A stretch of 64,000 nt of DNA from Escherichia coli (lineage in GTDB: Bacteria; Pseudomonadota; Gammaproteobacteria; Enterobacterales; Enterobacteriaceae): NCBI RefSeq assembly GCF_030384885.1, contig NZ_CP128613.1; one strand, 5' to 3'. The number at the start of each line of letters is the position of its first letter. Within the stretch, counting starts at the first letter, position 1. Below are positions 51,187 through 51,231 of this stretch, one piece after another. The notes under the pieces were generated by a model that saw only the letters and a program-made list of their open reading frames with translations, had not been told where the DNA came from and did not search any database. A program made the position numbers and the translations under genes.

Positions 51187-51231
51187 CCGGAGAATTGGGG
51201 CCGTCCCCGGTGAAAAGAGGCGTTTGCAGGT
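51187..51231 (-). ncRNA. Guanidine-II (mini-ykkC) riboswitch-like tandem hairpins in the gdx leader
   Basis: On the gdx strand: TTGCAGG-ACGA-CCTGCAA and GGGG-ACGG-CCCC, two stem-loops with ACGR tetraloops separated by a 17-nt linker, just upstream of the gdx RBS. Confidence 0.6.

Follow-up and report, generated by a model that had tools for sequence, protein, structure and literature searches.

The gdx (sugE) leader in Escherichia coli carries two GC-rich hairpins with ACGR tetraloops just ahead of its Shine-Dalgarno (SD) sequence; the locus raises the question of whether these form a guanidine-II (mini-ykkC) riboswitch and, if so, what closes the ribosome-binding site (RBS) when no ligand is bound. 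We examined both within a 64,000-nucleotide stretch of E. coli DNA, referred to here as the window. Both of the hairpins named in the original prediction, one with an ACGA and one with an ACGG loop, were found on the minus strand, separated by a short linker and upstream of GGAG. The interval given for them (51187-51231) was shifted, omitting the 5' strand and loop of P1 (51232..51242) and entering the SD; the correct span is 51196..51242. Read on the minus strand, the order is CAUCAGC-UUUGCAGG-ACGA-CCUGCAAA-CGCCUCUUUUCACC-GGGG-ACGG-CCCC-AAUUCUCC-GGAG-CCUGAU-AUG-UCC-UGG, with the following features:

51196..51242, or to 51244 with the covarying 2-bp extension of P1, minus strand: aptamer (P1, linker and P2), from the Rfam alignment
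51242..51223, minus strand: P1 hairpin, 8-bp stem UUUGCAGG/CCUGCAAA with an ACGA tetraloop at 51234..51231, from the Rfam alignment
G51244-C51220 and C51243-G51221, minus strand: 2-bp extension of P1 in Enterobacterales, across the bulged C51222
51222..51209, minus strand: linker CGCCUCUUUUCACC, 14 nt, from the sequence and the Rfam alignment
51208..51197, minus strand: P2 hairpin, 4-bp stem GGGG/CCCC with an ACGG tetraloop at 51204..51201, from the Rfam alignment
51188..51185, minus strand: Shine-Dalgarno GGAG, 6 nt 5' of the ATG and within the palindrome CUCCGGAG, read from the sequence
51178..51176, minus strand: gdx start codon ATG
50861..51178, minus strand: gdx (sugE) coding sequence, 105 aa plus stop, an SMR-family guanidinium exporter (NF008512, RefSeq)
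50861..51241, minus strand: TTG-initiated open reading frame of 126 aa, from a mechanical list of open reading frames
51261..51288, minus strand: promoter-like site TTGAAA-16 nt-CAAAAT with TG before the -10, from a consensus scan only

Both ACGR tetraloops are closed by G-C pairs (GG-ACGA-CC in P1, GGGG-ACGG-CCCC in P2). The GGAG begins 8 nt after the end of P2, and CUCU at 51219..51216 is the sole linker stretch capable of pairing with it. The element lies in the 5' UTR directly before the SD of a SugE/Gdx gene, the placement by which members of the class, which lie before SugE/Gdx or carboxylase genes, are recognized. We rated the promoter-like site as weak because shuffled sequences are expected to hold 1.1 such sites and one was found in the consensus scan; the site would place the transcript start near 51254, about 10-12 nt 5' of P1. 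A strong terminator-like hairpin with a 12-bp stem followed by TGTTTTTTTG was also observed at 51320..51347 on the minus strand, just after ecnB and upstream of the promoter-like site, which suggests that gdx is transcribed separately from ecnAB.

The proposed mini-ykkC/guanidine-II pattern was borne out by an Rfam covariance-model scan, in which RF01068 (Guanidine-II) matched 51196..51242 on the minus strand over its full length (model positions 1-48 of 48), with 50.4 bits against a gathering score of 32 and an E-value of 5.2e-7 computed for the whole window against 4227 families. The pattern also agrees with the SugE equivalog downstream, the same motif in orthologous loci and compensatory changes in P1. 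A single GGACGRCC 8-mer is unremarkable in the window, where 4 were seen and 3.45 expected; the tandem arrangement, with two copies 8-38 nt apart on one strand, was seen a single time in the window, and 100 dinucleotide-preserving shuffles gave none. Guanidine-I, -III and -IV were not detected by the Rfam scan in the window or in 79 gdx loci. Other Rfam matches in the window were an RpsF leader (1744..1828, minus strand, 110 bits) and, at 35260..35676 on the minus strand, three identical tRNA genes whose anticodon loop UUGCCAA indicates Gly-GCC; such features are usual in this region of the E. coli chromosome. The element is almost certainly the guanidine-II (mini-ykkC) riboswitch of E. coli gdx (sugE), which acts from the 5' UTR to switch translation ON, and no result spoke against this identity.

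It is hardly credible that the hairpins arose by chance, or that they are conserved through the coding of an N-terminal extension, as might be supposed from the open frame that runs from TTG 51241 across the hairpin region. The E-value of 5e-7 and the tandem motif in 0 of 100 shuffles argue against chance. The lengths of the linker and of the P2-to-ATG segment vary among relatives by non-multiples of three, substitutions are pairwise compensatory rather than codon-like, and the family profile and the homologues start at the ATG, all of which argue against a coding extension. On sequence grounds the true gdx start is ATG 51178, because the NF008512 profile covers residues 1-104 from that codon, RefSeq annotates a 105-aa protein from it and homologues align from residue 1. 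The 126-aa TTG frame was set aside as an artefact on this evidence, and the doubt first voiced about it as the real start was justified.

The 105-aa protein scored 193.5 bits against the NF008512 SugE/Gdx equivalog (cut-off 126), with residues 1-104 on profile positions 1-104 of 104, and all Qac and EmrE models fell below their cut-offs for this protein. Gdx exports guanidinium according to literature as cited in PMC13064478 and PMC12186494. The gene order of the locus is ampC-blc-sugE-ecnB-ecnA-efp-epmB, in which gdx (minus strand, ending at 50861) and blc (plus strand, ending at 50864) are convergent with stop codons overlapping by 4 bp. The RefSeq/PGAP record of an identical locus holds no riboswitch or regulatory feature before sugE and names the product a quaternary ammonium compound efflux transporter. 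The practical use of the present assignment lies here, as the annotation lacks the riboswitch and carries the old efflux name, and naive calling of open reading frames gives the wrong 126-aa TTG start.

Evolutionary maintenance was assessed in 80 loci that were fetched by the Gdx protein alone from one-genome-per-species contigs and then Rfam-scanned. Among the closest relatives having upstream DNA, all 19 (spanning Enterobacter, Citrobacter, Pluralibacter, Shimwellia, Hafnia, Serratia, Providencia, Budvicia and Photorhabdus) carried RF01068 ahead of gdx, with the match ending 13-28 nt before the gdx start. Three further sets carried it in 9 of 20, 7 of 20 and 9 of 20 loci, for a total of 44 of 79 loci, and the Rfam scan found no riboswitch family other than RF01068 in any of the 79. 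The remaining 35 (~44%) encode close Gdx homologues (59-73% identity) and had no Rfam match of any kind within 600 nt upstream, guanidine-I, -III and -IV included. In the Mesorhizobium leaders the aptamer was observed 44-66 nt from the start, with an extra hairpin between.

Within 28 aligned leaders, seven of the eight P1 pairs showed compensatory changes on both sides. P1 cells were 93.7% paired, and the overall value was 95.2% compared with 76.6% in shuffles and 36-63% when partners were slid. Doubly changed P1 cells numbered 65 versus 20 in shuffles, and the P1 covariation score was reached by 0 of 500 shuffles. The P2 stem was nearly invariant in these leaders (98.2% paired, zero compensatory changes) and is therefore uninformative by itself on covariation. 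Both ACGR loops and their closing pairs were essentially invariant, and the linker, little conserved, ranged from 13 to ~24 nt. Homologous leaders had a GGAG or GGGAG-like motif at the same place. The extension pairs of P1 also covaried among 21 enterobacterial leaders (GC in 13, AU in 5 and GU in 2 for one pair; CG in 17 and UA in 2 for the other), and RNAalifold on these 21 full leaders returned no conserved helix beyond P2 and P1 with its 2-bp extension. The hairpins upstream of the gdx SD thus have the anatomy listed above and are maintained in evolution.

This riboswitch is already known, and the hairpins are those of a well-studied E. coli element without novelty. The 87-nt leader is 100% identical to that of a K-12 genome and the same RNA appears in published studies, so the original prediction is both correct and already known. 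The element is that of E. coli K-12 sugE/gdx, with no differences in the aptamer. The sequence GG plus window 51242..51196 reproduces all of the named residues of the Gdn49 RNA (U3, U4, G6, G9, G10, A14, G39, G40 and G44), for which NMR and SAXS established that guanidinium binds the loops and that ligand-dependent G-C kissing pairs form (PMC9300104). The native 47-mer was studied by smFRET (PMC9094411), a crystal structure of an E. coli P1 dimer (PDB 5NDI) is cited in that same article, and the E. coli sugE/gdx guanidine-II riboswitch was also studied in PMC12117010. For the class as a whole, PMC5558903 describes the ligand pocket, a translational ON model and a linker that is variable. In the sequence of steps drawn in this literature, one guanidinium ion binds each ACGR loop, the ligand-bound loops kiss through C and G residues, and the SD becomes accessible, so that Gdx is made and guanidinium exported.

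Guanidine-dependent activation of translation has indirect published evidence in E. coli (PMC13064478) and direct evidence in Pseudomonas aeruginosa (PMC10351892). In E. coli, supplementation with Gdm+ produced a Gdx-dependent phenotype (PMC13064478). Strain ZX-1 lacks the 20 bp from -30 to -11 (window 51208..51189), and this deletion goes together with constitutive expression of gdx, as measured by single-replicate RNA-seq in a strain with 11 other SNPs (PMC13064478). The E. coli element resembles the guanidine-II riboswitch of P. aeruginosa in its two ACGR hairpins, their kissing on guanidinium and translational ON control over a gene connected with guanidine (PMC5558903, PMC10351892), and differs from it in the ACGG loop and the stem of only 4 bp in P2. 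Guanidine-I (ykkC), -III and -IV share the ligand and the associated gene classes, including SugE/Gdx exporters (PMC12186494, PMC7736828), but their folds are unrelated to this element, and classes I and IV act on transcription.

That gdx might be controlled at least partly at the level of transcription, with P1 and the U-rich linker that follows it acting as an intrinsic terminator or attenuator, is very improbable. The consensus scan did flag TTTGCAGGACGACCTGCAAA plus CGCCTCTTTT as terminator-like, and gdx mRNA was reported as raised in the ZX-1 deletion strain (PMC13064478). However, the U run begins 6 nt past the stem and is interrupted, U tracts are not what the linkers of relatives contain, and published accounts treat the class as exclusively translational (PMC10351892, PMC5558903). 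Raised expression accompanies the ZX-1 deletion even though that deletion spares P1 and the U run, and a translation-coupled stabilisation would also give higher mRNA.

Within E. coli the leader is present nearly throughout. The 87-nt sequence was found in 5412 of 5426 complete genomes, identical in 3152 and with at least one change in 2260. A 601-bp query covering the locus was found in 5425 of the 5426 and had 100% identity to strain 2013C-4282; outside the aptamer, which is the same as in K-12, many E. coli depart from the window strain within these 601 bp. Among four E. coli sequences compared, the hairpins, the SD and the first codons were invariant. The linker base C51219 of the window and K-12 is G in CFT073 and in the O157 strain AR-0429, and C51192 is T in CFT073.

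For the unliganded state, three expression platforms were compared by folding. For the leader from ~51254 to +15, P1 and P2 alone were predicted at -20.1 kcal/mol. Adding the linker CUCU:GGAG helix gave -21.7 kcal/mol and adding a P0b-like AUCAG:CUGAU helix gave -19.7 kcal/mol. Opening P2 and placing its strands on GGAGCC and GUCCU gave -24.6 kcal/mol, and the minimum free energy, reached by an elaborated P2-opened fold, was -27.2 kcal/mol.

The model drawn in PMC9300104 and PMC9094411 has P1 and P2 folded and CUCU (51219..51216) pairing with GGAG, with loop kissing pulling the linker off the SD. Sterically the helix can form, contributing -1.6 kcal/mol on top of P1 and P2, and linker:SD helices enclosing P2 were predicted in some relatives, including loci L007, L016, L017 and L037. 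Against this, the helix has only 4 bp, one of them G-U, and the linker:RBS duplex (-3.5 kcal/mol) is weaker than in shuffles (z = +1.0). Fewer than 0.3 linker:SD pairs were expected in the ensemble, and the first C of the pairing stretch (51219) is the base that is G in CFT073 and an O157 strain, breaking the pair. Deep mutagenesis in P. aeruginosa also gave no evidence of SD:anti-SD pairing (PMC10351892). For the window sequence we consider sequestration by the linker unlikely, given the weak duplex, no better than shuffles, and the polymorphic base, and we kept it only as a rival.

In P. aeruginosa the platform is P0b, a helix that joins the 5' tail to the spacer between SD and AUG; the equivalent complement in E. 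coli is only 5 bp and not above chance. Here AUCAG (51248..51244, 5' of P1) would pair with CUGAU (51183..51179, in the SD-AUG spacer), and P1/P2 kissing would break the helix. The two 5-mers are exact complements placed where P0b acts (PMC10351892), and the relative L007 retains the pairing through G-U. However, the structure is no more stable than P1 and P2 alone (-19.7 versus -20.1 kcal/mol), the helix competes with the covarying P1 extension, and the pairing is lost in the close relative L006. Complementarity of the 5' and 3' tails was at chance (window z = +0.3; mean z = +0.15 over 45 leaders, with 4 of the 45 below -1.5), and the helix needs a transcript start upstream of 51248, where the placement of the start is itself only a prediction. 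With an exact 5-mer complement that is not above chance and brings no gain in energy, this platform by analogy to P. aeruginosa was rejected as improbable.

The third platform is a competition for the strands of P2. In the unliganded RNA the weak 4-bp P2 would lose out to pairs that its own strands make with the SD and the start region, ACGGCCCC pairing with GGAGCC (SD) and GGGAC with GUCCU (start region); ligand-driven kissing would then stabilise P2 and free the RBS. The corresponding feature is:

51172..51207, minus strand: candidate OFF-state pairing, predicted by the minimum-free-energy fold of the leader to +15 or +30

In this fold GGGAC (51207..51203) pairs with GUCCU (51176..51172, which takes in the G of AUG and codon 2), GGC (51202..51200) with GCC (51185..51183) and CC (51198..51197) with GG (51188..51187). 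The candidate pairing uses the P2 strands and so excludes the P2 hairpin. For the leader to +15 this P2-strand/RBS fold is the minimum-free-energy structure, 4.5-7 kcal/mol below P1 and P2, and in the ensemble the RBS pairs with the loop and 3' strand of P2, not with the linker. The predicted probability of P2 in the window leader was 0.11-0.14 in its native context.

Across 45 leaders, with phylogeny ignored, the predicted probability of P2 was 0.35 with native downstream tails versus 0.53 with shuffled ones (Wilcoxon p = 0.002), while that of P1 stayed near 0.9 with either. The P2 values were bimodal, with a stable P2 in ~14 of the 45; expression platforms therefore appear heterogeneous, about a third of leaders having a stable P2. 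The start of the coding sequence points the same way as the P2 competition. AUG-UCC-UGG, which complements the GGAC of the ACGR hairpin, was observed at 21 of 44 riboswitch-bearing gdx loci versus 2 of 30 without a riboswitch (Fisher p = 2e-4, phylogeny ignored), the former including two distant clades, Enterobacterales and Mesorhizobium. In Bradyrhizobium the P2 sequence GACGACCC is perfectly complementary to the SD-AUG spacer, GGGUCGUC.

Other results qualify the competition for P2. P2 and the SD are scarcely more complementary than mononucleotide shuffles (mean z -0.29; -0.7 in the window), since a C-rich strand will pair with any SD that is rich in G. The preference for the OFF fold also varies with the length of coding sequence folded: with 43 nt of coding sequence the minimum-free-energy structure keeps P1 and P2, and the SD is sequestered by codons 10-14 instead. 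At that length the cost of opening the RBS was 6.6-6.8 kcal/mol for the free, P1+P2-enforced and deletion (ZX-1) variants alike, because the predicted hairpin between the RBS and codons 10-14 dominates. This hairpin spans window 51136..51192 and, irrespective of P1 and P2, joins UCCGGAGCC in the SD region to GG.CU.CUGGA in codons 10-14, the conserved G-L-L-E region; it may have arisen as an artefact of folding, or it may occlude the RBS as a second layer.

We also noted a possible pairing between the fourth base of the P2 loop and the base after GGAG. Leaders with ACGG loops had C at that position in 11 and U in 1, and those with ACGA loops had U in 10 and C in 9. This was suggestive by eye, and we set it aside as evidence because clades differ in register and one close clade makes up the ACGG set.

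Within the riboswitch reading, competition for the P2 strands is a plausible candidate for the OFF state, although these folding models leave it short of probable and part of the probability falls to none of the three platforms. P2 would serve at once as one half of the sensor and as the anti-SD, and the conserved AUG-UCC-UGG would have a part in the switch. We put this dual role forward still more tentatively, together with its corollary that natural deletions of P2 would be constitutively ON and circulating in clinical E. coli. The proposal is a specific, testable alternative to the published drawing, and its residual value is narrow. As a discovery the element itself carries no weight, being a textbook member of a validated riboswitch class from an organism and locus already studied structurally.

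Besides this alternative for the OFF state, a natural deletion of the linker and P2 is worth carrying forward. In strain 167, a urine isolate (NZ_CM132950.1, L082:2501-2568), 29 bp (GCCTCTTTTCACCGGGGACGGCCCCAATT) equivalent to window 51193..51221 are deleted, which loses the linker and all of P2 and keeps P1, CUCC-GGAG and the ATG. The deletion resembles the laboratory 20-bp deletion of ZX-1 (51208..51189) and may be a constitutive-ON allele of gdx. The deletions of P2, one natural and one from the laboratory, suggest that Gdx can come to be expressed constitutively when the switch is lost.
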